A DNA stretch of 64,000 nt from Ostreococcus lucimarinus (lineage: Eukaryota), in the NCBI GenBank assembly GCA_000092065.1, contig CP000601.1; one strand, given 5' to 3'. A program made the position numbers and the translations under genes. Positions 3,001 to 43,891 of the stretch are shown here, one piece after another. How positions within the stretch are numbered: position 1 is the first letter of the stretch; each line of letters opens with the position of its first letter. The notes beneath the pieces were generated by a model. That model saw only the letters and a program-made list of their open reading frames with translations. It was not told the origin of the DNA and did not search any database.

Positions 3001-3392
3001 AGTTTACCATCGCCAAGCTTCTCGGTTCCATGCCGGTCACGCAACGCGCGGCGAATTTGCAAGCTTTCCGAGAAGATCCAAACGTCAGCGTGATCTTGAT
3101 GAGTCTCAAATCTGGCGGTGAAGGACTCAACTTGCAAGCGGCGAATTACGTATACGTTCTTGAGCCATGGTGGAACCCAGCGGTGGAAATGCAAGCCGTG
3201 ATGCGCGCACATCGCATCGGGCAGCTTCGACCGGTGACCGCTGTTCGATTTTCGACCAAAGGCACGATTGAAGAACGCATGATGGAGCTTCAAGAAAAGA
3301 AGCAGCTTGTGTTCGAAGGGTGTATGGACGGCAATCAAGCCGCGCTTTCTCAACTGACTGCCGAAGACTTGCAATTTTTGTTCAAGCGATGA
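56..3392 (+). CDS. SNF2-family DNA-dependent ATPase with C3HC4 RING finger (Rad16/Rad5 class), fused to an N-terminal PARP-type zinc finger. Predicted 2 exons, 56..208 and 294..3392. The gene may start upstream of the window, because frame 2 is open from base 2.
   Basis: Helicase motif I is GILADEMGMGKT, motif II is DEAHKIK and motif III is LTGTPLQN. A Cys cluster (CSTKGCECK...CTNCGCG) is inserted between the helicase lobes. The RING is CGMCQDE...CKHIFHRECI...CPVCRTAL. The C-terminal helicase lobe is LKSGGEGLNLQAANYVYVLEPWWNP...QAVMRAHRIGQ. The upstream ORF 56..256 encodes ACEYAKSGRGKCGKCGEK, the first half of a zf-PARP. Its second half (RIGEPLKYRGGDYGWISKWMHPECY) lies in the main ORF frame. 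Confidence 0.75.
209..293 (+). other. Predicted spliceosomal intron (85 nt, phase 0) joining the two halves of the zf-PARP
   Basis: Donor is AAG|GTGCGGCGA at 209. Branch is GACTGACGACGAGGG at 251-265. Acceptor is GCGAAG| at 292-293. Splicing gives CGKCGEK|DAVRIGEPLKY...WMHPEC, i.e. C-x2-C-x26-H-x2-C. The frame-2 stop TGA lies inside the branch motif. Confidence 0.55.
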
Positions 3393-27504: not shown

Positions 27505-30462
27505 ATGGCGCGTCCGCGAGCCGACAGCGCGTGTGCTCGCCGCTCGCCGCTCGGCTTCGCGTCGAGCGCGCTCGGATCCAGGCACCGCGTCACTCACCCG
27601 CGCGCGCGGGACATGCGCGTCGACGCCGCGCACACAGCGCGCCCGCGACGCGTGCACTTTCTCGTCGACGCGCGCGCGACGCGCGAGCGCGCGAGCGCGA
27701 CGCAGTCGGCGTCGACGTCGGGAGCTGATTTTAAATCTTCAACTTGGAAAACCTTCGCGCGCCGCGCGCTCGAACGCGCCGTCGACGGGCGCGCGGGCGA
27801 AGACGTTGAATTTACCGTGCGCGCGTGCGATGGGTCGGTGCCGCCGCACGCGTTCGACGCGCGGGCGCGAGAGGCGACGGGACGACGCGGCGATGAGTTT
27901 GGAAAGTTTCGGCGGTGCGACAAAAACGCCGTCGAGGACGCGTTCAGGACGTGCGAGACGACGTGCGGGGAGTATTTAGAGACATTTACGAGCGGCGGCG
28001 ACGTCGCGGCGAGCGACGAGGATGGACGGGGGGCGATCGAGAGTTGGTTGGTGAACGCGACGCGGAACGTCGGCGCGGCGACGAACGATTTCGCCGCCGC
28101 GGGCGGCGGATTCGCCGCGACTTTCGCGGACGACGACGACGAAGGCGAGAAGTACAGCGCGTTATTCATCATCACCGCACTCCCCGAGCTGTCGGAAGCG
28201 GAAGCGGCGAAGGTTGATGCGAAGCACGTGGCCAAGTTGTTTAAAGGCATCGAGGAGAAGTTCAAGCGAGACCGCGTTCGAGCGCATTTGTTGTACGTCG
28301 GCGACGGACCGACGGGCGCGTTCGCGGACGTCTTGCAAGAGACGTTTCATAAATTGAATGGTGCGGTGATATCGCTCGATGTCGCGAGCAGACTCGCGTC
28401 CTGGCTGCCGCTGTATTCGACGCTCTCGGCGCTGAGCCGCGGTGACGAGGCGAGCGCGTCCACGACTACGGTGGAGTCGACAAGTACGGTGGACATAATC
28501 GTCGAGACTCGAGACTCGCAATCGGCGCATCGCTTAGGCGAAGCCCATCAAGCGCGATATCATGGTCGAGGTGACGGTTCGATTGCCATTGTCGGTTTCA
28601 TCGACCGCGCCGAAGCGCCCTCAGCCGCGGCGCTGGCTGTTGAAACGCAAACCATTTTGTGCTTTGACGACTCGCCGATTCGTGCGCTTATGGCGATGCT
28701 TGTACTAAAAGACGCAGTCGCAGTCGTCCGACGCGATGCTGGGAGACACGAGCAGATCGCGATTCTAGAGCCGTTGACGTGTTCGTCCTTCATCGTCACT
28801 TCCCTGAAGACGACGCCTGGCGAGCTGTGCCCGCGCGCGTCGGCAGCGAAAGCGAGCGCTCGGAGCGAAATTGTTAAACTCGCGTCGAGGCGAGATTGTT
28901 TAGCGTCACTCGAAAATGTGCACGTATTGCTCGCGAAGATTCGCGAAGACGTGCGCGAGAAGATTGTGTCACCTCCGGCGACGCAGGATTCTTTAGCGTT
29001 GACGCAACAAGTGTTGTCGATGGACGCTGCGACGCAGAGCTCAAGTGCGCCGCTGATGCCGGTCGATGTGAACACCCTTGAGGAAGCTTTCATCGCGGAC
29101 CAGCGAATTGGCGTGCAACAAGATGCCTCTCGGTTGGAAGCTTGGTACGGCTCGCGCGATTTGGTGCCAAAGACTCGAGAAATGTTGCGTCGCGTGGAAG
29201 ATAAAGCGACGAAATCTTCAGACACCGCGGGCGAACTCTTGAATAATCTCGATGAACGGTTCAAGGACATGCTCAAACGCCATAATGGCATTGTTTCGCC
29301 GCCGCGAAAGTCACGAGCGCGACGATCGCTCGCGTCTACGCTAACGGTGTTTGCAATGGACGCTGACGTGCCGCCATGGACTGGGGATGTCGAACAGGCG
29401 GCGCTCGAGGAATACGAGTCATTCGTCGCTACGTTCAGCGCGCTCGAAGGTGGGGACGGATTGAACGAGCCGAATCTCCATGATTTCGCTGCCAAGATTA
29501 TTTATCGATTCCGCTTGAGCGTGGGCTCGAACGAAGACGATAATCTCGTCGAGCGACTCGAACGCGCAATCGCGAAGAATTCAAAAGAGCTCAAGGCAAA
29601 GTACGTCGGTGTACACTCATCCAAGGCGGCCAAGCGGCTGGAGTTCATATTACAGATGCACGTCGCGCTGCAGTTGGCTTCTCTCAAAGTGACGCAAGTG
29701 CGCGATGAGAATGGCGCGGACGCGTGCGAGGCTGTCGAAGAGCGCGCCATCTCGAAGAAAGAGCAAAAGAAACTCGTCAAGTCTGTGCAAAAGTTGGTGG
29801 ACGAGATTCATTTTCTTCTTCAACCCTGCGGCGTCGAGGGCGTGCGCTCGTTGATGGCGGCAGAGTTGACTCCACACTATAGCGGATTCATACCAGACAC
29901 TTTGCGAGTGTTGCAGCGCGATCTCGGCTTGACCATGGAACCCGACGCCGGCGGCGACGCAAGTGCCGTCGCGTTGACGCCGTTTTCTCCCGTGCCCGCG
30001 CTCAGGCGCTCACCAAGAAAGCCGAAAGCACCGGAAAGACTCGCACCCGCAGAACCGGCGCCGAAGCTCAAAATTAAGGCGAAACCGCACGAGGGCTGGC
30101 ATCACCTCGCGCGTGGGCGGAACAACACGAAGGAAGTCAAGGTGTCCGTCAAAGATTTGAAAAAGCCGACGTTCGCGCATCCGCGACCGCAAACGTTTCG
30201 CGGCGTTACGCGCCATTCAGCTCTCCAAGGTGGCGCCACGCCCGCACCGAGCGGTAACCGCGCGCTATCGACGCCCGCGATAGTGAAATGCACGCCCATG
30301 GGCGGCACCACGCCCGCGCCGATGCGCGGGGGACCGCGAGCAATTGTCGCCGCGACACCCGTCGGCGGCGCGATGTCGACGCCGTTGGCGAATCGTGCGC
30401 CCGTCCGCAAGCTGGCCGACGACTTCACGCCCGCGAAAAGATCGCGACTGCACAATACATAG
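27505..30462 (+). CDS. Hypothetical 985-aa protein with a C-terminal cluster of S/T-P sites and a KRSRL basic motif. Start is uncertain.
   Basis: Continuous ORF with coding-like GC3. The C-terminus reads TPAPSGNRALSTPAIVKCTPMGGTTPAPM...ATPVGGAMSTPLANRAPVRKLADDFTPAKRSRL. The ATG at 27505 lies only 60 bp after the HECT stop. Confidence 0.5.
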   Translation: MARPRADSACARRSPLGFASSALGSRHRVTHPRARDMRVDAAHTARPRRVHFLVDARATRERASATQSASTSGADFKSSTWKTFARRALERAVDGRAGEDVEFTVRACDGSVPPHAFDARAREATGRRGDEFGKFRRCDKNAVEDAFRTCETTCGEYLETFTSGGDVAASDEDGRGAIESWLVNATRNVGAATNDFAAAGGGFAATFADDDDEGEKYSALFIITALPELSEAEAAKVDAKHVAKLFKGIEEKFKRDRVRAHLLYVGDGPTGAFADVLQETFHKLNGAVISLDVASRLASWLPLYSTLSALSRGDEASASTTTVESTSTVDIIVETRDSQSAHRLGEAHQARYHGRGDGSIAIVGFIDRAEAPSAAALAVETQTILCFDDSPIRALMAMLVLKDAVAVVRRDAGRHEQIAILEPLTCSSFIVTSLKTTPGELCPRASAAKASARSEIVKLASRRDCLASLENVHVLLAKIREDVREKIVSPPATQDSLALTQQVLSMDAATQSSSAPLMPVDVNTLEEAFIADQRIGVQQDASRLEAWYGSRDLVPKTREMLRRVEDKATKSSDTAGELLNNLDERFKDMLKRHNGIVSPPRKSRARRSLASTLTVFAMDADVPPWTGDVEQAALEEYESFVATFSALEGGDGLNEPNLHDFAAKIIYRFRLSVGSNEDDNLVERLERAIAKNSKELKAKYVGVHSSKAAKRLEFILQMHVALQLASLKVTQVRDENGADACEAVEERAISKKEQKKLVKSVQKLVDEIHFLLQPCGVEGVRSLMAAELTPHYSGFIPDTLRVLQRDLGLTMEPDAGGDASAVALTPFSPVPALRRSPRKPKAPERLAPAEPAPKLKIKAKPHEGWHHLARGRNNTKEVKVSVKDLKKPTFAHPRPQTFRGVTRHSALQGGATPAPSGNRALSTPAIVKCTPMGGTTPAPMRGGPRAIVAATPVGGAMSTPLANRAPVRKLADDFTPAKRSRLHNT

Positions 30463-30514: not shown

Positions 30515-31263
30515 CTAAGGGAAATATTCGCGTTCTCGAAACGCGCTGGCGCCGAGCGCCATCGTGAGCTCTCTGGCGCGAGCGATATCCACGCCGGGCG
30601 TTCGCGTCGTCGTCGCCTCTACCTCCATCCCGAGTTCACTACATCGTTCAATGAACGCCAACGCGTCTCCTTGCGTCCTTCCGTCCCTCGGCGCCATGAT
30701 TCGCGCGTACTCATCCGGATCCGCGCTCGCAAAGTTAACCGTCACGCTTCGCAATCCGGCGTCCCGCAACGCGTCGCACACCGCCACATCCACCAGTCCA
30801 TTCGTCGCGACGCGCGTCGCGATTCCGTGTCTTCGCGCTCGTATCTCTCGCAGCGCGTCGCACAGCACGTCGTGGCGCAGCAACGGTTCGCCGTATCCCG
30901 CGAAGACGACGCCCGGGTCGCTCTCGCCGCTGCGCGCGTCGTCCAGAGTCACTTCTTTCGTCAGCGCGGGGTCCGATCGAGCGCGAGAGACGCTCGCGGG
31001 TGGAATCGAGCCGCGCGCGCGGTCGCGTCGACGCACCTGCTCGCGATGGGCGGCAGCGCGTCGTAGAAGGCGTCGATGACGTCGACGAGTTCAGCAGCCG
31101 TCGGCTCGGGCTCGGTCAGTAACTGAAACTTTGACGACGCCGGCATCGAGAACGCGGGTCCGCGGAGTCGCGTCAGCGGCGTCGCATTCGTTTGGTTGGT
31201 CAACGCGAGATACAACGCGCCGCGAAGGGTGTAGGCGACGCCCGGTCGCGCGAGGGACGCCAT
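30515..31263 (-). CDS. Radical-SAM-fold (TIM-barrel) protein lacking the CxxxCxxC triad. Predicted 2 exons, 31037..31263 and 30515..30929.
   Basis: Exon 2 carries GVVFAGYGEPLL...VATNGL...LRSVTVNF, which are radical SAM core motifs. Exon 1 has ALYLALTNQTNATPLTRL where CNLRCxYC is expected. The two ORF-track pieces (30961..31263 and 30515..31036) are in different frames and are joined by the intron. Confidence 0.5.
30930..31036 (-). other. Predicted intron (107 nt, phase 2)
   Basis: Donor is AGCAG|GTGCGTCGACG, branch is CCGCGCTGACGAAAG and acceptor is CGCGCAG|CGGCGAG. Splicing yields ...ALPPIAS-S-GESDPGVVFAGYGEPLL with a total coding length of 642 nt. Confidence 0.5.
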
Positions 31264-31359: not shown

Positions 31360-33927
31360 CTACTTGTACAGAAACGCCACACCGCTCAAGAGTGGGGCGC
31401 GGGATTGCGCCAGGGTGGCGTACACGGTGACGGATCCGCGCTCGCGCGCGGGGGACACGCAGTCGATTTCAATGTTTTCGCCCTGCGCCGAAGCGACGGT
31501 TTCGACGACGGCGACTCCCGCGGGGCGGGCTTGGACGCGCGTGGAACCAAAGTGGCACGTAAGCATCTCACTCGCGACGGCGATGGAGAGCGTGGCGCGA
31601 ACTGGCGTGCCGCCGAATGTCCAACCGCTCGCCGCGTCGACGGCGGACATGTACGATTGCGCCATGGACGTCAACGCCACGCGCGTGTGCGAGGCGGAGG
31701 CGGTCGATCCGGTGGGTAATGCTTTGGTGGAATCGCACTCTTCGAAACACGGCGTCACCCAACGCTCGACCACACCCGTGGACTCTGCGAGCGGAGACTC
31801 GCACATGATCAACGCGCTCGAAACAACGACGCCACCAGAGACGCCGGCGCCGCCGCCGAACACGCACAGCGATTTCGCGGAATCTATCGTTCCCTCGACG
31901 TGCGTGGATATGAGATTCGATCCCGTGATTGATATCACGTCTACCGGTCCCCAGGTCTGGCGCGGATGCGCGCCAGTAACCGCGTGGTCTTCCTTGACTA
32001 ACAAAATCGCCGGCGGATCGAGCGACGCCGCGGCGGCGTCGCGCGCCAATCGCACGACGACGAAGCCTGGGGACAGGAGTGCGGGCGTCGGACAGTGCAC
32101 TGAGGGTGCGACGTACGTACCGACAGTGGCATTTAAATTTCCTGAACCGAACACGCACTTCAAAGTTCCCACGGACAACGTCCCGAGCTGTTGATGATCC
32201 CCGACGATTATTTTCGCCGTCGCCGCAGCGAGGTATGTCGTCGCCGGCGTCAACCACAACGGCGGCGCGACGTACGCCGACGTCGTCTCCGCGGTGACTG
32301 GAATAGTCAACCCGTACTGTACTAAATCTACCGACTCCGTCGCCCCGAACCCGAGCATGAGCGCGCTCTGCGACGGCTTCAACGCCGGTGTCACACATTC
32401 GGCAACTGTCCCGCTCATATATCGCGCGTGCACGGGACCGACGGCACCGAAATGACATCCCGAATACGCTCGACTCTCGCCTTCGTCGGGATACGACGTC
32501 CCAGTGACTTGTAACGCCACGCCACCCTGATGCGTGATCGTCAGCACGTCCACGCTCGTGATCGTTGGCACCGCCACGGGGGCGACGTACACGGAGCGAA
32601 CCACCGCGTTCGCGTCGGCGCTACAGCTAATTTTCACCTCTCCCGATGTCCAAGTCGGGGTGTCCAAACACCGCGCGATAGCGCTAGATACGTACACCAA
32701 TCGTGAAGTCGAGGCATCGGGATAGGTGCACACGCAACCGTCATCATAATCGAAAGAAAAACCTGAACCTCTAACGAAGAAATTGCCGCCGAGGACGACG
32801 TCAAACGGCGTCGCGCCGCTCGCGACGTCTAGCGTCGGATTCATCACCACCAAGCTCTGTGCCTCTTCCGCGGGCTCAAGTGGGTCGGTTGTCTGTCGCG
32901 TTGTTTCGGTAAACGCCACGTTCACGGTCGTCGTGAGTACGAAGCGACCGTTGCCGATGCCCAAGCGCAACGGCACGCTCGCCGCCGCCGCGCGCGCGGG
33001 CGAGTAGCACGTCGCCGTCTTCGACGCCGTCACGCGCGCGTCGATGGGGCCTATCGTGCCAAAGAAGCAACTCAAAAAGTCTCCGTCGTCCTCCCCGCCG
33101 ACGGTGCTAAAACCGTTCCCCGTGACCAACACGGGCGTGCCGCCCGTGACGTTGACGCTCGACGTGGCGCTCGTGAGCGAAAAGTCATTCGTCTCCAACA
33201 CAAATCCCAACACTCCGCGCGATCGCGGAGGTATGGAAACCGTCTGATTCGCCGTCGTCGCCGCGAGCGCATTCGCGTCGTACTCGCTCTGCGACGCCGT
33301 GAACGTCGCGATCACCATGGACGAAATCTCCCCGCTCGTCAGCGGCGGCGTCTCGCATCGAATCAACGCGCTCGACACCACGTCCACCCCCACGTGCGTC
33401 ACCGGCTTCGTCCATCGCACGCTCACCGCCTCGTGCAAGTGCTTCCCTTGCAAATAAAACACCTCTCCCCCGATCTCCGGCGCGTCCGTCGGGTACGCGT
33501 TCGTCACCGACATCTGTTTCGCGAAATTAAACGTCTCGCCGTTTTCATTCATCGGCGCCGTCGTCGCCGCTCGGTTCGCCCTTCGCAGCGTCAGCCCCAC
33601 GCTCACGAACCCTCCTCGATCGTCCGCGTGCCTCGGGCTCAGGCACACCATCGTCGCGTGCCCGCTCTGCGTCCCCTTCGACGTCGGCGCGACGACGGCG
33701 TCGTCGAACGCGCACGCCGCGTCCGCGCTCCCGCCGTACCCCTCGCCCGCGAGCGTCACCAGCGTCCCGCCCACCGCCGGCCCGACCTCGGGCGTCACGC
33801 AGTCGATCGACATCGACGCCCCCGGGCGCAGCGCGACGACGCACGACCACGACGCCGCGATCAGCGCGCGCGCGAGCGCCGTCGCCGCGACGCCGCGACG
33901 CCGCTTCGCTCGACTCGACCGCGGCAT
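31360..33927 (-). CDS. Secreted or cell-surface protein with ~8 tandem IPT/TIG-like (Ig-fold) repeats and an N-terminal signal peptide
   Basis: The repeats follow the pattern C-x-FG...C-x-(T/S)P, e.g. LSCFFGTIGPIDARVTASKTATCYSP, GCHFGAVGPVHARYMSGTVAECVTPAL, KCVFGSGNLNATVGTYVAPSVHCPTPAL and LTCHFGSTRVQ...EIDCVSPA. The signal-like N-terminus MPRSSRAKRRRGVAATALARALIAASWSCVVALRPGA begins at 33927. Confidence 0.55.
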   Translation of the reverse strand: MPRSSRAKRRRGVAATALARALIAASWSCVVALRPGASMSIDCVTPEVGPAVGGTLVTLAGEGYGGSADAACAFDDAVVAPTSKGTQSGHATMVCLSPRHADDRGGFVSVGLTLRRANRAATTAPMNENGETFNFAKQMSVTNAYPTDAPEIGGEVFYLQGKHLHEAVSVRWTKPVTHVGVDVVSSALIRCETPPLTSGEISSMVIATFTASQSEYDANALAATTANQTVSIPPRSRGVLGFVLETNDFSLTSATSSVNVTGGTPVLVTGNGFSTVGGEDDGDFLSCFFGTIGPIDARVTASKTATCYSPARAAAASVPLRLGIGNGRFVLTTTVNVAFTETTRQTTDPLEPAEEAQSLVVMNPTLDVASGATPFDVVLGGNFFVRGSGFSFDYDDGCVCTYPDASTSRLVYVSSAIARCLDTPTWTSGEVKISCSADANAVVRSVYVAPVAVPTITSVDVLTITHQGGVALQVTGTSYPDEGESRAYSGCHFGAVGPVHARYMSGTVAECVTPALKPSQSALMLGFGATESVDLVQYGLTIPVTAETTSAYVAPPLWLTPATTYLAAATAKIIVGDHQQLGTLSVGTLKCVFGSGNLNATVGTYVAPSVHCPTPALLSPGFVVVRLARDAAAASLDPPAILLVKEDHAVTGAHPRQTWGPVDVISITGSNLISTHVEGTIDSAKSLCVFGGGAGVSGGVVVSSALIMCESPLAESTGVVERWVTPCFEECDSTKALPTGSTASASHTRVALTSMAQSYMSAVDAASGWTFGGTPVRATLSIAVASEMLTCHFGSTRVQARPAGVAVVETVASAQGENIEIDCVSPARERGSVTVYATLAQSRAPLLSGVAFLYK

Positions 33928-34147
33928 CTTCTTCAACGTTTCGCGCCTCGCGCGCGCGATCGGCGCTCGCGCGCGCGACTCGGACGCCATCAGACGCGCA
34001 CAAAGATACGTGTGCGCGTTCGCATCGCGCGTTCGAGCGCGCGCGAGGGCGCGCGCGTCGCGGAGTCGCGAATTTGTGACGAATTTCCGTTGACTCATCG
34101 GGACGATCTGCACTCGACGACGCGACGCGACGCGCGCGCGCGGCGAC

Positions 34148-37100
34148 ATGGCGCCGTTTCTCGGTGGTATGCGCGGCCTGACGGTGTTCGTGCAAGACGT
34201 GCGGAACTGCAGTAATAAGGTGCGGCGAGCGCGCGCGCGCGAGGGATGACGACGACGGGCGAGGGCATTCGATCGAACGAAACGACGCGCGGTGACGCGT
34301 TGAGCGGCGAGAGCGCGAGAGAGAGGCGCGCGGACTGACGACGAGGGTCGCGCGCGTCGCGAACGCGAACGCAGGAGCAAGAGCGCGCGCGCGTGGAGAA
34401 GGAACTGGCGAATATTCGACGGAAATTCAATAAGACCCACCGCGCGCTCACGGCGTACGAACGGAAAAAGTACGTGCTGAAGCTGCTGTACATATACATG
34501 CTCGGGTATAACGTGGACTTTGGACACACCGAGGCGCTGAAGTTGATATCGGCGTCGTCGTACGCGGAGAAACAGGTTGGGTACATGACGACGTCGGTGA
34601 TATTGAACGAGAGAAACGAGTTTTTGAGAATGGCCATCAATAGCATACGCACGGATGTGATCTCGAGCAATGAGACGAATCAGTGCTTGGGGTTGTCGTG
34701 CATCGCGAACGTCGGGGGGCGGGAGTTCGCGGATTCGTTAGCTGGGGACGTGGAGACGATTGTGATGACGCCGACGATTCGGCCGGTGGTTCGGAAAAAG
34801 GCGGCGCTGTGTCTGTTGAGGTTGTTTCGTAAGAATCCTGAAATTTTACTCGCGGAAACGTTCGCGTCAAAAATGACCGACTTACTCGACGCCGAGCGCG
34901 ATTTGGGGGTGCTCATGGGCGTCTTGGGTTTGTTGCTGGGTCTCGTGCAGCACGATTACCGAGGGTACGAGGCGTGCGTGCCCAAGGTCATCGCGTTGTT
35001 GGAACGATTGACGAGGAATAAGGACATTCCGCCCGAGTATTTGTACTACGGTATTCCCTCTCCATGGTTACAGGTGAAGTGCATGAAGATTTTGCAGTAC
35101 TTTCCCACACCAGACGATCAGGCGCTGCTCGATTCGCAGCTCATCGCCATGCGAAACATCCTCACCAAGACGGACACGGTGAAAAACTTCAATAAGAACA
35201 ATGCGCTGCACGCCATCTTGTTCGAGGCGATCAATTTAGTTACTAGCATGGACTACGCGCACGAACTGTTGGACCCGTGCGTGGAGATTCTCGGGAATTT
35301 TCTCGACATGAAGGAACCGAATATTCGCTACTTGGCTCTCAACACGCTCAACGCCCTCGCGGCGATGGCGGATTTGCGAGAAGCCATAAAGGTGTACCAA
35401 GAGCAAGTCGTGGCTGCGTTGCACGACGCGGACATTTCCATTCGTCGCCGCGCGTTGACTTTATTGTTTTCTATGTGCGATGCTTCCAACGTGCACTCTG
35501 TCATCGAGGAGCTCATCAAGTACTTCGTCACCGCTGATTTTGACATTCGCGAGGAACTGGCGCTCAAAACGGCCATCTTGGCCGAGCGCTACAGCGTGAA
35601 CGATCGCATGTGGTTCATTGAGATCGCGATGCAAATGATAGACAAGGCGGGCGATTTCATCAACGACGACTTGTGGCATCGCATGGTGCAAATCGCAACC
35701 AACGACGCGTCGCTTCACGGTCGCACGGCGCAATTGATGTTCGTCAAGTTGCGCGACGAGGGCGCGTCGAACGAACTCATGCTTCGCGCGATGTCGTACT
35801 GCATCGGAGAGTTTGGGTATTTGCTTCCCATTCCCGCGTCGCAGTACGTCGATCTCTTAGTGCCACTGTTCCAGGATACGGATGAGGTCACGCAGGGCAT
35901 CATGCTCACAGCCTTCGTCAAGGTTGCGATGCACAAGAATTGCGATCAGGCGTCGATGGGTAAGATCGTGAAGGTGTTCACCGACATGAGCTCATCGTTT
36001 GACGTCGAGTTGCAGCAACGTGCAAACGAATATCTGAAGCTCTTGCGTCTCGGACCGAACATGCGACCGATTCTCGAGCCCATGCCCGAGTACCCTGAAC
36101 GTTCGAGCGTGTTGGAGAAGCACATACAAGTAGAAAACGTCGCCTCGGACGTCGCCGCGGGAGTTCGTAAACTTGCCATGAGTGGTGTCGTGACGGCGAG
36201 AGAGCAACCCCGCGCTCAGGCGCGGTCGGCGCCGGCGCTTCCTGCAGCCGCAGCACCGCCGGTCGATGCCGTCACAGATTTGCTCGGCAACTTGATGGGC
36301 GACGGATCTTCGGCGCCGGCGGCGCTTCCGCCGTCGTCGACTGGGATGAATCTCGACGAGCTTCTCGGAAACGCCCCTCCCGCACTTCCAGCGGTAGAAG
36401 AGCGTCTCGCACTTCCGAGTTCCACGTCACCTCCCGCGGGGCCGGTGACGACCACATCGTCCGCAGACGCTTTAGACGATTTACTAGGCTTAGGCGCGCT
36501 CGCGGCGACGCAACCGCCGCCGGCGACGCACGGCGACGCCTTAGACGCCTTTGGAGCTCTGGGTGCGCCGGCGCCCGCGGCGCCGGCACCGACGCAACCC
36601 GTGGCACCGGTACAATCATTGACGTCGAGCGACGGTATTCAACCCACGGTGAACGTTCAAGACTGCGCGAAACGGTTCCTCATCGCCGACAACGGCTTGC
36701 TGTATGAAGACGCGAACGTACAGATTGGCGTGAAATCGCAGTGGCAAGGGTCTCAAGGTCGCGTGATGTTCTACGTTGGGAACAAGTCCGCGAGCGCGGA
36801 TCTGCAAAACTTCAGAATGGTCATACCGTCGATCGAAGGCTTGCGTCACAGTCTTCAACCCTTCCCCGCGTCCATCGGACCGAAGCGCCAGGTGCAGTTG
36901 ATGTTGCAAGTAGCGATTACGTCGGCGTTTGCCTCGGCGCCAAAACTCGAGTTTTCGTACACGTCCACCGCCGTCGCGGCGGCGTGTGCCAGGTCTCTGG
37001 AGTTGCCCGTACGTGTGACCAAGTTTTTGAGCCCGATGACCATCGCTTCGCCGCAAGAGTTCATCGCCAAGTGGCACCAGATGGCGTCCGCCGGGCAGCA

Positions 37101-37383
37101 ACAGAAAATTATGGACGTGTCGCAGCAGTACGCGACGAGCATCGAAAGCGTGTCAAACGCCTTCTCGGGCATGCGGCTCGTCGTACATAAAGGCTTAGAT
37201 CCAAACCCCGCAAACTTAATCGCGGGAAGCCGGTTCGTCGGCGAACGATGCGGTGAAGTCTTTGTGGGCGTTCGCGTGGAGAGCGACGCGAACGTGCGCG
37301 GACGATATAGATTCACCGTCGCTTCGATGGACGCCGTCGCGGCGGCTGCGGTCATGGATACGATCGTTACCGCACTCCAATAG
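34148..37383 (+). CDS. AP-2 adaptor complex subunit alpha (alpha-adaptin). Predicted 2 exons, 34148..34219 and 34375..37383.
   Basis: Exon 1 MAPFLGGMRGLTVFVQDVRNCSNK joins exon 2 EQERARVEKELANIRRKF. Together they match the metazoan [44 protein letters not shown]. An adaptin N-terminal trunk and a C-terminal appendage domain follow. Confidence 0.85.
34220..34374 (+). other. Predicted intron (155 nt, phase 0)
   Basis: Donor is AAG|GTGCGGCGAGCG, branch is CGGACTGACGACGAGGGTCG at 34332-34350, and acceptor is GAACGCAG|GAG. Confidence 0.7.
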
Positions 37384-40047: not shown

Positions 40048-40438
40048 CTGCGAATCCGACGCCCCGTCGATCGACGGCGAAACCCGTCGGCGCGCGCCGC
40101 GCGCGCGGCGCCCGCGCCAAAAGTTGTAATATCACGTTACTCAAGCACCCTCGCGAACGCAACCGCGCGCTTCCGCACCGAATCCGTCGAATGTGGTTCT
40201 CGCGAGCCAGAGGGGGAAGGAACCGCGAGGACGGGGTCCCGCGCGTCAAACACCGCCGCCTCGCATCGCCGCGAACGCACCGTAAACGCGCCACGCGCGC
40301 GTCGGGCGATAGTACGCGTCGTGTTGAAAGCTCAACCGCGCGCGCGCGCGTGGCGCGCGTCGGTGCGCGACGCTCGTCGACGTAACGACCCCGCGGCATT
40401 CCGCAAATTCGCGAAATTCGGTGCAAAACCGACGCGGA

Positions 40439-43400
40439 ATGGACACGAATTGGACGCCAGCGACGCCCGCGCGCGCGCGTGCGGACGCACGAATCGCGTC
40501 GGATAAGGTGCTGTCGACAAAGGCGTTCGAGGACGCGCGGGTGAAGGATCACCGCGACGTGGAGCGGGAACGCGGGGTGTACCTGCCGCCGAGCGCGGAA
40601 GAGGCGGCGACGCACGCGGACAGCGCGCAGCCGAGACTGCTGAGCGAGGATGGGAAATTGGAAAAACTTAAATATTTTGACTCCGAAGTAGACTTGGGAT
40701 TGGAGTTCGGGGCGGGGGTATCGGGATACTTTTTCGTGCTGCGGGCGTTCGCGTGCTTGTTCTTCGCGGCGTTCGCGTTGAATTTGCCCGCGATGTTCAT
40801 TAATTACACGAGCACGTATTACGCGTCGCATTACGAAGCGGAGCCTGAAACCGCGACAGCGCCGACGGCGGACGCGCTCAGTGGACGCCCGACGACGTCG
40901 TTTCACTCGTGGTTCGTCGATTGGCACTGGGCGAATCCGATGAGCGCGAGCTTGGGGACCGTGGCGCCTGACGATGTGCCGCAACGAGCGTGGGTGCTCG
41001 CGGGGACAACGAGTGGGGTGCTGCGGTGGAGCTCCAGTAAGATAGATTTCATTCGATTTTCGGTGGTGATGGATGTCGTGGTGTCCTTGATAATTATATT
41101 GAGCGTTCCAGTGATTATGCTTGTGTTGATGCGTACGGAGCGACGGGTCGAGAGAGGGACGGCGACGTTGAAGGATTACACGGTATTAGTTACAGGATTA
41201 CCAAGCGATGCGACCGATGAAGAAGTGCGATGCTTTTTCGCGCTCAGGTTTGGGACGGTAGCCGACGTCGTGCTCGTAAAGACGGAGTGTATGCAAATCA
41301 ACGCGCAGCGACGGCGTCGGCGCTTGTTGGAGGATTACGACGAAGCCGAAGCTGCGCTCATCGCCGCAGGTAATCGCGGAGGTGACGGCACGAAGACGGC
41401 TATAGAAAACGAGATATTGGCTGTGGATAGGAAATTGAAGCGCAGAAGAGCGCGAACGCGGGCGAAACAGTGTAGTGCTTTCATCACGTTTGAAACCGAA
41501 GGCTCAAAGATTGATTGTATATTGCGCAACACGCGCAGTATAATGTCGTACATCTTTGCGTTTCCTAGGAAAGAGCGTTTCCGAGGAAAGCGGAAGTACA
41601 GAGTGCGAGATGCTCCCGAACCTGAGGACGTACGATTCGAGAATCTGAATCTCTCGAATCGCTCATGGCGTCGACTCGTCGTGCTATTCTCGTGCTCGGC
41701 CGTCGTGCTCTTGTGTTACGGCTTTTTGAAGATGCTCGTGGATGACAAGGAGAAGCTGTGGGAGAACGCAGACATGATGGTCACTACGCTTGCGGACGAT
41801 GTTGGCATTGTCGTCGCCCACGGTAATCCGGTTGAGCAATTCGAGACGCATAAGAATCAGTTCAGGACAGCATGCAGAGCTCGCTTGGACCAATGCGGCG
41901 TGGCTTTTTCCAAGGACAAAACGTACGTTGGCATGCCTTGGGGGGCGCCAATTTACGCTTTCTACGACTACCCCAACGCCACACTCTTAGATCGTCGTTA
42001 CGCTCAGCAGGATGCGGTTCGTGATTTGACGAATTGCGCCCAAGACACCAACCGTTGTCCGGGAGGTCCGACGATGCAAAACTGTCACGCGTGCTACTGC
42101 GCCAGTCTGAAGTACGGCTTAACTTCGGAGGTTGTTCGGGCATACAACAAAGCCATTCGCCACTCGTGCGCGAAATACGTGAACCTCGGTCCAGGAGAGT
42201 ATTACAACTGGTTGTGGGTGTCGTTTTGCATTACGCTCATGAACGTCCTCCTCGAATGGATTGTGCCCCTCCTCGTCGCCGCAGAACGTTTGCGCACGCG
42301 CAGTGCCACGAAGGTGCTCAAGACGAAAATAATCTTCTGGGTGCGATATTTGAACGTCGCGGTTATTTATGGCTTGCTCAACGCCAATTTCTATCACATT
42401 GGCAGGTATTTCCCGCTCATCAAGCAAATGTTTGGGCTCAAAGGCGAGTACGCAGATTTCACGAGCGAATGGTTCAACGACGTCGGCTTGGTGTTGTTTT
42501 TCGCAATCATGATGAGCGTGACGATACGTATTTTGGCTCGAGTACTTGTAGACATCATCACGCATGTCGGTCGAAAATTCTCCGTGGCGTACTGTCACAC
42601 GCAAGCAAAGCTGAACAAGGCGTTTGAAGGGCCATCGTTTGACACCGGCGCCAAGTGCGGCGACGTTTGCTTTACGATTATGGCGGCGATGACCTTTTCG
42701 AGCGGTATGCCGCTGATATACTTGGTTTTGTCGATGTACTTCGTGTTGGTGTACCTGTACGATTACCGCCTCCTGTTGAAAGTGTGCAAGTTGCCCGAAA
42801 GATCGAAGAGCACGCTTCCCATGACGGCGGCGAAGGTGCTTTTCATCTCAGTCTCGATTCACGCTCTCATCGGTCTTTGGATGTTCTCGTACCACTGGAC
42901 ACCTGATTTGGCGAAACCGACGAAAGACTTTGAACATTCGAGTAAGAACAATGCTCCTCCGCTTGCGTATGAGATTGGGGGTGAAATATTAAACCCGCCG
43001 CACGACAACGGCGCGCTCACGGCCATCGTGCAAAGCACCGGCGTCGCGACGACGTACTTTCATCAGTATCGCGACGCGACAGTCGGGGCGTTGTCGGCGG
43101 GAGATTTCGTCGCTCCACCGCCACGCGTACAGCTGCGTTTCGCAGAACGACCGTTCAGCGAAGCGGGGATGCCGTTCATGGGTATGTTCTTCGCCCTTTT
43201 GGGCGTCATGGGTTTGTGGCAAATCGCAGTCGCGTGGCATAACTGGGGCAAGTCGCGTCGAGACATCGCGCGCTCGTGGAAAAACTTACCTCAGTATCAC
43301 GAAGCCATCATGACCGGGTTAATCGTCGGTTCGGAGACGTACCGTCCCGAATATCAGCCCGATTACGCGTTCTTGTTCGACAAGAGCACTGTCGCGGCGG

Positions 43401-43891
43401 CCAAAATGAAACTAGGCTCGTACGCGGGAGGCCCCGTGCGCGGCGACTCGGTGAACTCGCGAGACGCGTGGTCGCTCGGACAAGGCGACGACGATGATAT
43501 CGCGGAGCTGATTCATCATCGTTATGATAACGAACGCGAGTACGACGGTGGCGCGCCTTGGGTGCGTAAGACCGGTTCAAAGATATACGGCGGCGACGCC
43601 GCGACCGCGAAGCGAGGCTCTCGCGGCACGCGCCAGCGCGACGGCGGACATTACGGCGTACCAGTGGTCGATGTTCGCGCTTTGGGGGTTGGAAGCGACT
43701 ACAATCACGTCGAAAACAACGCGTTCGGGCACTCCGACGCGTTCGTCGCGGATGATCATGAGTGGGACTCCGCCTCCGACGCCGACACGCTCGACGACGA
43801 CGCGTCGACGCAGCGAAGTCAATCCTTTAGCGATTACGAGAACGATGATCAACGATTCGACGGCGCCAGGCGACCGGCATGGCTCGACTAG
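40439..43891 (+). CDS. Multi-pass membrane protein, OSCA/TMEM63/CSC1-like (DUF221, hyperosmolality-gated cation channel family) with a long low-complexity C-terminal tail. Family assignment is moderate confidence.
   Basis: TM segments flank a cytosolic RRM-like domain (ATLKDYTVLVTGLPSDATDEEVRCFFALRFGTVADVVLV...AFITFETEGS). A 7-TM C-terminal block follows. The ORF-track start at 40421 is a GTG; the first ATG is at 40439. Confidence 0.5.
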   Translation: MDTNWTPATPARARADARIASDKVLSTKAFEDARVKDHRDVERERGVYLPPSAEEAATHADSAQPRLLSEDGKLEKLKYFDSEVDLGLEFGAGVSGYFFVLRAFACLFFAAFALNLPAMFINYTSTYYASHYEAEPETATAPTADALSGRPTTSFHSWFVDWHWANPMSASLGTVAPDDVPQRAWVLAGTTSGVLRWSSSKIDFIRFSVVMDVVVSLIIILSVPVIMLVLMRTERRVERGTATLKDYTVLVTGLPSDATDEEVRCFFALRFGTVADVVLVKTECMQINAQRRRRRLLEDYDEAEAALIAAGNRGGDGTKTAIENEILAVDRKLKRRRARTRAKQCSAFITFETEGSKIDCILRNTRSIMSYIFAFPRKERFRGKRKYRVRDAPEPEDVRFENLNLSNRSWRRLVVLFSCSAVVLLCYGFLKMLVDDKEKLWENADMMVTTLADDVGIVVAHGNPVEQFETHKNQFRTACRARLDQCGVAFSKDKTYVGMPWGAPIYAFYDYPNATLLDRRYAQQDAVRDLTNCAQDTNRCPGGPTMQNCHACYCASLKYGLTSEVVRAYNKAIRHSCAKYVNLGPGEYYNWLWVSFCITLMNVLLEWIVPLLVAAERLRTRSATKVLKTKIIFWVRYLNVAVIYGLLNANFYHIGRYFPLIKQMFGLKGEYADFTSEWFNDVGLVLFFAIMMSVTIRILARVLVDIITHVGRKFSVAYCHTQAKLNKAFEGPSFDTGAKCGDVCFTIMAAMTFSSGMPLIYLVLSMYFVLVYLYDYRLLLKVCKLPERSKSTLPMTAAKVLFISVSIHALIGLWMFSYHWTPDLAKPTKDFEHSSKNNAPPLAYEIGGEILNPPHDNGALTAIVQSTGVATTYFHQYRDATVGALSAGDFVAPPPRVQLRFAERPFSEAGMPFMGMFFALLGVMGLWQIAVAWHNWGKSRRDIARSWKNLPQYHEAIMTGLIVGSETYRPEYQPDYAFLFDKSTVAAAKMKLGSYAGGPVRGDSVNSRDAWSLGQGDDDDIAELIHHRYDNEREYDGGAPWVRKTGSKIYGGDAATAKRGSRGTRQRDGGHYGVPVVDVRALGVGSDYNHVENNAFGHSDAFVADDHEWDSASDADTLDDDASTQRSQSFSDYENDDQRFDGARRPAWLD

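Follow-up and report, generated by a model that had tools for sequence, protein, structure and literature searches.

A radical SAM-fold protein lacking the cluster-binding cysteines in Ostreococcus lucimarinus and other marine algae

Radical S-adenosylmethionine (SAM) enzymes form a superfamily defined by cluster-binding cysteines. In the NifB core, BlsE, pyruvate formate-lyase (PFL) activating enzyme, MoaA and viperin, a CxxxCxxC motif holds a [4Fe-4S] cluster and SAM is cleaved reductively. Two families of minimal size are without known function: TIGR04038 (IPR023821), the TatD family nuclease-associated radical SAM proteins of bacteria and archaea, about 190 amino acids long, and TIGR04100, found in Clostridia and about 200 amino acids long. 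Here we describe a nuclear gene of Ostreococcus lucimarinus, located on the minus strand at positions 31263-30515 of a 64,000-nucleotide stretch of contig CP000601.1 (GenBank assembly GCA_000092065.1); the whole stretch is called the window below. In contrast with the five enzymes named above, its 213-residue product lacks a cluster ligand at all three positions of the motif.

Among curated families, TIGR04038 gave the best score. The two are equal in size and match end to end: residues 9-211 of the product align with profile positions 2-191 of 192, with 68.9 bits and an E value of 4.9e-19 (8.9e-17 when exon 2 is used alone). The curated cut-off, however, is 129.7 bits, far above this score. 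The best ortholog reached 3.4e-28, and no ortholog was reported above the cut-off. The window protein, compared with TIGR04038 through the hidden Markov model profile of the family, also differs from it in the absence of CxxxCxxC and in being eukaryotic and nuclear-encoded. Against TIGR04100 the score was 53.5 bits (curated cut-off, 262), and the motif position reads LTNQTNATPLTRLR. A TIGR04100 protein from Monoglobus pectinilyticus (WP_320691400.1), found by tblastn against plasmids, is collinear with the window product over 96% of its length with 25% identity. Shared elements include Y11, Y18, T22, R34, the EPS motif, F-x-G-x-G-E-P, R94, R115-x-x-T-N-G, Y150, F168 and FRxREY. In contrast, the triad and the cysteines of FCGYGEP and DCG, present in the bacterial members, are all replaced in the algal clade to which the window protein belongs.

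The gene model was obtained by enumeration of all in-frame GT/GC..AG introns. The minus-strand open reading frame (ORF) that starts at the ATG at 31263 begins MASLARPGVAYTLRGALYLALTNQTNATPLTRLRGPAF and, if left unspliced, is 100 codons long before a stop is reached; LYLALTNQTNATPLTRL is located in this ORF (30961-31263). Another minus-strand ORF, in a different frame (30515-31036), carries GYGEPLL, VATNGL and VTVNFAS. Only one splice, with donor cagGTGCGT at 31036 and acceptor AG at 30931-30930, joins both frames and yields a 213-residue product. This is exactly the product proposed in a first-pass annotation, made from the DNA letters alone, which had also listed the three core elements just mentioned. 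Exon 1 (31263-31037), defined from the ORF list and the splice enumeration, supplies codons 1 to 75 and the first two bases of codon 76, and contains strand beta1 and the degenerate cluster loop. Exon 2 (30929-30515) supplies the last base of codon 76, the radical-SAM core beta2-beta6 up to P213, and the stop codon TAG (30517-30515). The 107-nucleotide intron between them (31036-30930) reads GTGCGT...GCGCAG and has a CTGAC branch-like site at 30964-30960. The simplest intron, which would pair the GT at 31036 with the AG that comes first after CTGAC (30956-30955), was rejected as out of frame; of the enumerated acceptors, that at 30931-30930 alone reproduces the junction found in the orthologs.

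The predicted junction, PPIASS/GESDPGVVF, is supported by six homologs with 58-65% identity, all of which read I[AG]SSGE[SD]DPGVVF across it. Two of these homologs, P0005 (contig L001, 6001-6654) and P0002 (contig L006, 5001-5651), are uninterrupted, intronless ORFs of 217 and 216 codons, and sit on long metagenome contigs with the same gene neighbourhood as the window. Because both read straight through the proposed junction, they support the 107-nucleotide splice. They also share the start position of the window product, and the N-terminus (RPGVAY...) is conserved among orthologs. The intron is lineage-specific: missing in P0002 and P0005, it is common to the window and to L005, a metagenome contig with 97% DNA identity (intron at about 3230-3345), where a putative branch site CGGAC stands in place of CTGAC. 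Prokaryotic gene callers break the spliced gene apart into an exon-1 read-through of 100-143 amino acids and an exon-2 piece of 145 amino acids. Split versions of this kind are found in JGI metagenome 3300048032 (L004) and in proteins P0001 and P0008-P0010; hence, public protein collections contain chimeric or truncated forms.

Membership in the radical SAM superfamily was examined by profile and by structure. Exon 2 alone matches the Pfam Radical_SAM profile (PF04055) with an E value of 2.6e-12 and 47.6 bits, above the gathering cut-off of 29.5. The match is limited to profile positions 46-151, downstream of the cysteine motif. An AlphaFold2 model of ortholog P0002, built from a 62-sequence alignment, had a mean pLDDT of 96.5 and a pTM of 0.92, and the best 50 Foldseek matches to it were all radical SAM enzymes. 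At the level of the predicted model, a radical SAM (beta/alpha)6 partial-TIM-barrel fold is thus established. By Pfam score, by fold and by the presence of a GGE-type motif the protein belongs in the superfamily; by the CxxxCxxC cofactor motif it does not.

The register of the missing motif was set by ungapped BLASTP and by aligning the family profile to the bacterial TIGR04100 protein with hhalign. BLASTP gave an E value of 4e-13, and hhalign a probability of 99.5 and an E value of 2.3e-23 over 193 columns. The N-terminal alignment has no gaps: LYVNITNRCSNACVFCVR in the window product stands against LYLALTNQTNATPLTRLR in the bacterial protein. The eight codons at the CxxxCxxC position (31191-31168) encode T25-N-A-T-P29-L-T-R32. 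Hence, Cys1 is replaced by T25, Cys2 by P29 and Cys3 by R32, and the aromatic residue between Cys2 and Cys3 by T31. Alignment with the MoaA profile places Cys1 in the same column. Product, intron and flanks contain no CxxxCxxC, and the three cysteines of the product (99, 127 and 172) are not conserved across the family. The first-pass annotation had described the motif as replaced by TNQTNAT. The triad is indeed absent; the stretch it named is, however, shifted by three residues with respect to the true register. Two further ideas were considered for this region and rejected: N-glycosylation at the NQT and NAT sequons, as a signal peptide is lacking and neither sequon is conserved, and a role of R34 as a cluster replacement, since the same arginine follows Cys3 in the bacterial enzymes.

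That annotation had also allowed for a missing exon that would supply the cysteines. This is contradicted by several observations. The motif position is present in the product and is filled by other residues, and the intronless orthologs have the same start. The upstream gene, which encodes a TIG-domain protein, has its stop codon only 96 nucleotides away from the ATG, and no cysteine motif is encoded in this spacer in any frame. Finally, the ortholog of Mantoniella antarctica (P0206) has an N-terminal extension of about 70 residues, rich in Ala, Ser, Arg and Pro, and lacks the triad even in this extension. P0206 is an MMETSP transcriptome sequence and provides expression evidence for the ortholog. 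The window protein has no such extension, so it is probably cytosolic in this species, and localisation may differ between lineages.

The absence of the triad is not a peculiarity of one gene. A profile made with the orthologs was searched against 1.84 billion representative proteins, which yielded 1589 relatives with E values of 1e-3 or below, 75 of them at 1e-30 or below. CxxxCxxC occurs in none of the approximately 130 family representatives whose sequence spans the motif. In the Cys1 column, 41% of the sequences have Cys and 26% have Ser, the others A, T or V. The residues of the Cys2 column are T (52%), S (28%) and P (14%), with A, G and R also found and Cys never. In the Cys3 column the residues are mainly A, E, Q, D and S, with Cys absent from the common ones. 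One other column of the family is Cys in 80% of the sequences, and is Leu in the window protein. Named members come from M. antarctica, Pycnococcus provasolii, the haptophyte Diacronema lutheri, the diatom Phaeodactylum tricornutum (B7G5A2) and the bolidophyte Triparma verrucosa, and many others are marine metagenome and Tara sequences. Of the named relatives, those closest to the window gene are from prasinophyte green algae. Judging from these sequences, loss of the triad is ancient and fixed across a large clade of marine algae that includes prasinophytes, haptophytes, diatoms and bolidophytes. The proposal that this is a radical-SAM-fold homolog without [4Fe-4S] ligands, either dead or repurposed with regard to radical chemistry, is therefore borne out by the product itself and by all the representatives.

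Members of the clade carry pipeline labels such as 'TatD family-associated radical SAM protein', 'Radical SAM core domain-containing protein', 'MoaA' and 'PFL-activating enzyme'. A full-text literature search returned nothing on the function of TIGR04038/IPR023821, on radical SAM homologs without the cysteines or on the named algal proteins. The sequences are already in databases, under wrong labels, and their cluster-less nature and the breadth of the clade appear to be undescribed in the searchable literature.

In the bacterial relatives, the motif is almost always intact. WP_320691400.1 was used to fetch 120 bacterial relatives (P0232-P0351), and NxTNRCSNxCxFCxR with the full triad is present in 119 of these closest TIGR04100 proteins; the single exception appears truncated. 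The bacterial set has two further near-invariant cysteines, in FCGYGEP (100%) and DCG (94%), at whose columns (window residues 86 and 201) the algal clade has Ala and Leu instead. When 185,579 prokaryotic genomes were scanned twice with I[GA]SSGE[SD]DP, EL[VA]x[AV][VM]D[ARS]FY and F[AG]GxGEPLLR, no relatives were detected.

When conservation was compared outside the cluster loop, we found that 37 columns reach 80% conservation or more among the algal sequences and that the residue of 22 of them is shared with the bacterial enzymes. These include Y11, L17, Y18, T22, R34, L49, P54, F85, G87, G89, P91, R94, R115, T118, G120, Y150, F168, V179, G202 and R209, among others. The 'GGE' motif of radical SAM enzymes, which binds the SAM amino group, corresponds to G87-Y-G89-E90-P91 (30898-30884). 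In the family, both glycines are conserved in 99%, E or D in 100% and the proline in 97%, and the motif is also found in the bacterial relatives. T118-N119-G120 (30805-30797), at the end of the strand after the GGE helix, is T or S in 100%, N in 74% and G in 99%; it aligns with the TNG of MoaA ('TTNG') and of TIGR04100, and is a conserved core motif of the subfamily. The C-terminus, F206-R-E-R209-E-Y-F-P213 (30541-30518), has its counterpart in the bacterial FRLREY ending, with R209 found in 86% of algal and 100% of bacterial sequences.

Other conserved positions are specific to the algal clade. Just past the former cluster loop lies R34-G35-P36-A-F38-S-M-P41 (31164-31141), with conservation of R in 96%, G in 100%, P in 92%, F in 97% and the last P in 81%. 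R34 is ancestral, as it corresponds to the Arg of bacterial CxxC-x-R, two residues after Cys3. In contrast, the G-P-x-F-x-x-P motif is algal-specific, and the bacterial relatives have N, K, D and N at its four columns. Additional clade-specific residues are A86, L93, L121, P156, G176 and L201. As read from the alignments, the cluster ligands have been removed and the adjoining loop remodelled, and the ancestral conserved surface is otherwise preserved.

The gene is under strong purifying selection and is functional in the evolutionary sense. Comparison of the window coding sequence with that of L005 revealed 16 synonymous and 5 non-synonymous changes, which correspond to a dS of 0.102, a dN of 0.011 and a dN/dS of 0.10. 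Exon 1, with the degenerate motif, has 11 synonymous and 2 non-synonymous changes (dN/dS 0.06), and the motif codons themselves differ by synonymous changes only. Four of the five indels between L005 and the window lie within the intron. Among seven Mamiellales-like sequences, 85 positions are invariant.

In other organisms, the domain is found as part of larger proteins, with a J domain (P0113), TPR (P0044) or ankyrin repeats (P0147 and P0159, two clusters) fused C-terminally. Another arrangement was detected in L009 (Logan contig SRR22390403_344146; 51-605 and 651-1697; protein P0026): the ExoIII part (Y-x3-D) of a DEDDy 3'-5' exonuclease lies in the same ORF, upstream of the domain without cysteines, and matches PF01612 with an E value of 1.2e-11. 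The preceding ORF, in another frame, contains an ExoI-like FDTEW that was recognised by eye only; Pfam does not recognise this upstream ORF as the N-terminal part of the exonuclease. L009 is probably a spliced gene for a fusion of the exonuclease and the radical SAM-like domain. Taken together, the fusions suggest that the domain works inside protein complexes.

How should these observations be interpreted? Loss of the cofactor residues throughout the clade, a dN/dS of 0.10 and retention of the fold are the properties expected of a pseudoenzyme, and this class is a plausible, if unproven, assignment. Taken as a whole, the reading we consider likely is that the gene encodes a functional, cluster-less protein with a non-radical binding or adaptor role. 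It would descend from minimal bacterial radical SAM enzymes (about 200 amino acids) of the TIGR04038/TIGR04100 type. It has lost the triad, the aromatic residue that lay between Cys2 and Cys3, and the two further bacterial cysteines, and it keeps the fold and most of the conserved positions unrelated to the cluster. Without a cluster, SAM would be neither reduced nor cleaved, and no 5'-deoxyadenosyl radical would be formed. Retention of the GGE and TNG motifs, of four arginines (R34, R94, R115 and R209) and of three tyrosines (Y11, Y18 and Y150) suggests that the face for ligand and substrate is still used. Radical SAM proteins of activase size, such as PFL activase, are open barrels that act on macromolecules. 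The putative retained pocket and the barrel face would most likely bind the ancestral ligand, SAM or a nucleoside-like compound, together with a macromolecule, and the protein would most likely serve as a non-radical binding or adaptor subunit inside a complex.

Certain considerations weigh against this interpretation. Retention of GGE and TNG could be purely structural. Presence of Cys1 in 41% of the representatives, together with the column that is Cys in 80%, raises the possibility that some members, unlike the window protein, may perform thiol chemistry. As for the fusions, each partner is found in only one or two clusters and on short metagenome or transcript contigs. Lastly, neither the two bacterial families, TIGR04038 and TIGR04100, nor the algal clade itself offers a function that could be transferred.

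An alternative that we view as unlikely is that the protein is a true enzyme that has been repurposed: it would bind SAM or a nucleoside cofactor and perform polar, non-radical chemistry such as alkyl or aminocarboxypropyl transfer, or the processing of nucleic-acid 3' ends in conjunction with an exonuclease. Complete conservation of the acidic residue in G-x-G-[E/D]-P, the four arginines and three tyrosines common to the bacterial enzymes, and the low dN/dS would fit such an enzyme, as would the DEDDy exonuclease fusion in P0026/L009 and the name of the sister family, which refers to a linkage with TatD nuclease. A connection with nucleic-acid ends, drawn from the TatD 3'-5' exonuclease in that name and from the L009 fusion, is attractive and thinly supported. 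Within the window, none of the 19 large ORFs scanned, a set that leaves aside small and spliced genes, encodes TatD, and adjacency carries little meaning in a eukaryote. Against a repurposed enzyme, no new clade-wide His, Asp, Lys or Cys with a catalytic look has been gained; the residues newly fixed in the clade are Gly, Pro, Phe, Ala and Leu. Furthermore, the unique iron that chelates SAM is gone, and in the superfamily SAM binding leans heavily on it.

We consider it very improbable that the protein is still a radical SAM enzyme whose cluster is held by unconventional ligands or by a partner protein. The 41% of representatives that keep Cys1 and the 80% with Cys in the other column might be invoked in its favour. 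The window protein, however, has Thr at the former position and Leu at the latter, its own cysteines 99, 127 and 172 are not family-conserved, Cys is not seen in the Cys2 column nor common in the Cys3 column, and Ala and Leu stand here in place of the two additional cysteines that are invariant in the bacterial enzymes. More improbable still is a pseudogene in decay or an artefact of annotation (two ORFs unrelated to each other, or a cysteine-bearing first exon elsewhere), to which the interrupted frame, the gene-caller products of 100 and 145 amino acids and a 1-nucleotide indel in exon 2 of L005 might point: a canonical GT..AG intron restores the exact junction of the intronless orthologs, the motif position lies in exon 1 and the 96-nucleotide spacer lacks a cysteine motif, scattered small indels in the L005 contig are typical of an error-prone assembly, and a pseudogene is excluded by the dN/dS of 0.10 and the 85 invariant positions.

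The window itself is nuclear DNA of a eukaryote, compact and GC-rich (about 0.6). The products of its large ORFs include TAF2, a HECT ligase, AP-2 alpha adaptin, a Kelch/IQ protein, a SNF2-RING helicase, a cNMP-dependent kinase, a PPR protein, eIF3e and a P450. Gene order is kept between the window and contigs L001 and L006: AP-2 alpha adaptin, the protein with a TIG/IPT domain, the radical SAM-like gene, a protein of about 1000 amino acids and a membrane protein of the PHM7/RSN1 type. The ORFs of this neighbourhood in the window are 27505-30462 (+), 31360-34527 (-), 34393-37383 (+) and 40421-43891 (+). The protein of about 1000 amino acids, with 985 residues in the window, has no Pfam match. 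Many long ORFs are antisense to real genes or overlap them, such as 28560-29495 (-), 31364-32194 (+) and 31568-32458 (-); because such ORFs are expected from high G+C, they are not evidence of genes.

A large, old and selected eukaryotic clade that has the fold, together with most other conserved residues, and lacks the ligands shows that the scaffold can serve a cluster-independent role. As members are automatically annotated as radical SAM, MoaA or PFL-activating enzyme, counts of Fe-S and radical SAM proteins in algal genomes are inflated. The function can be tested because the clade includes genetically tractable members, Ostreococcus and Phaeodactylum, and knowledge of the algal function could shed light on the bacterial TIGR04038 and TIGR04100 families. 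A more specific proposal, which we hold as a tentative speculation of low probability, is an iron-free phytoplankton protein that recognises the ancestral ligand, SAM or a nucleoside, plus the ancestral macromolecular substrate and acts as a sensor, a reader or a non-radical catalyst in nucleic-acid 3'-end processing. If so, the clade would be, to our knowledge and within the searchable literature, the first functional lineage with a radical SAM fold to be characterised as free of the cluster. The clade is found in ecologically dominant, iron-limited marine phytoplankton, and loss of the cluster would then possibly represent iron-sparing evolution in the ocean.
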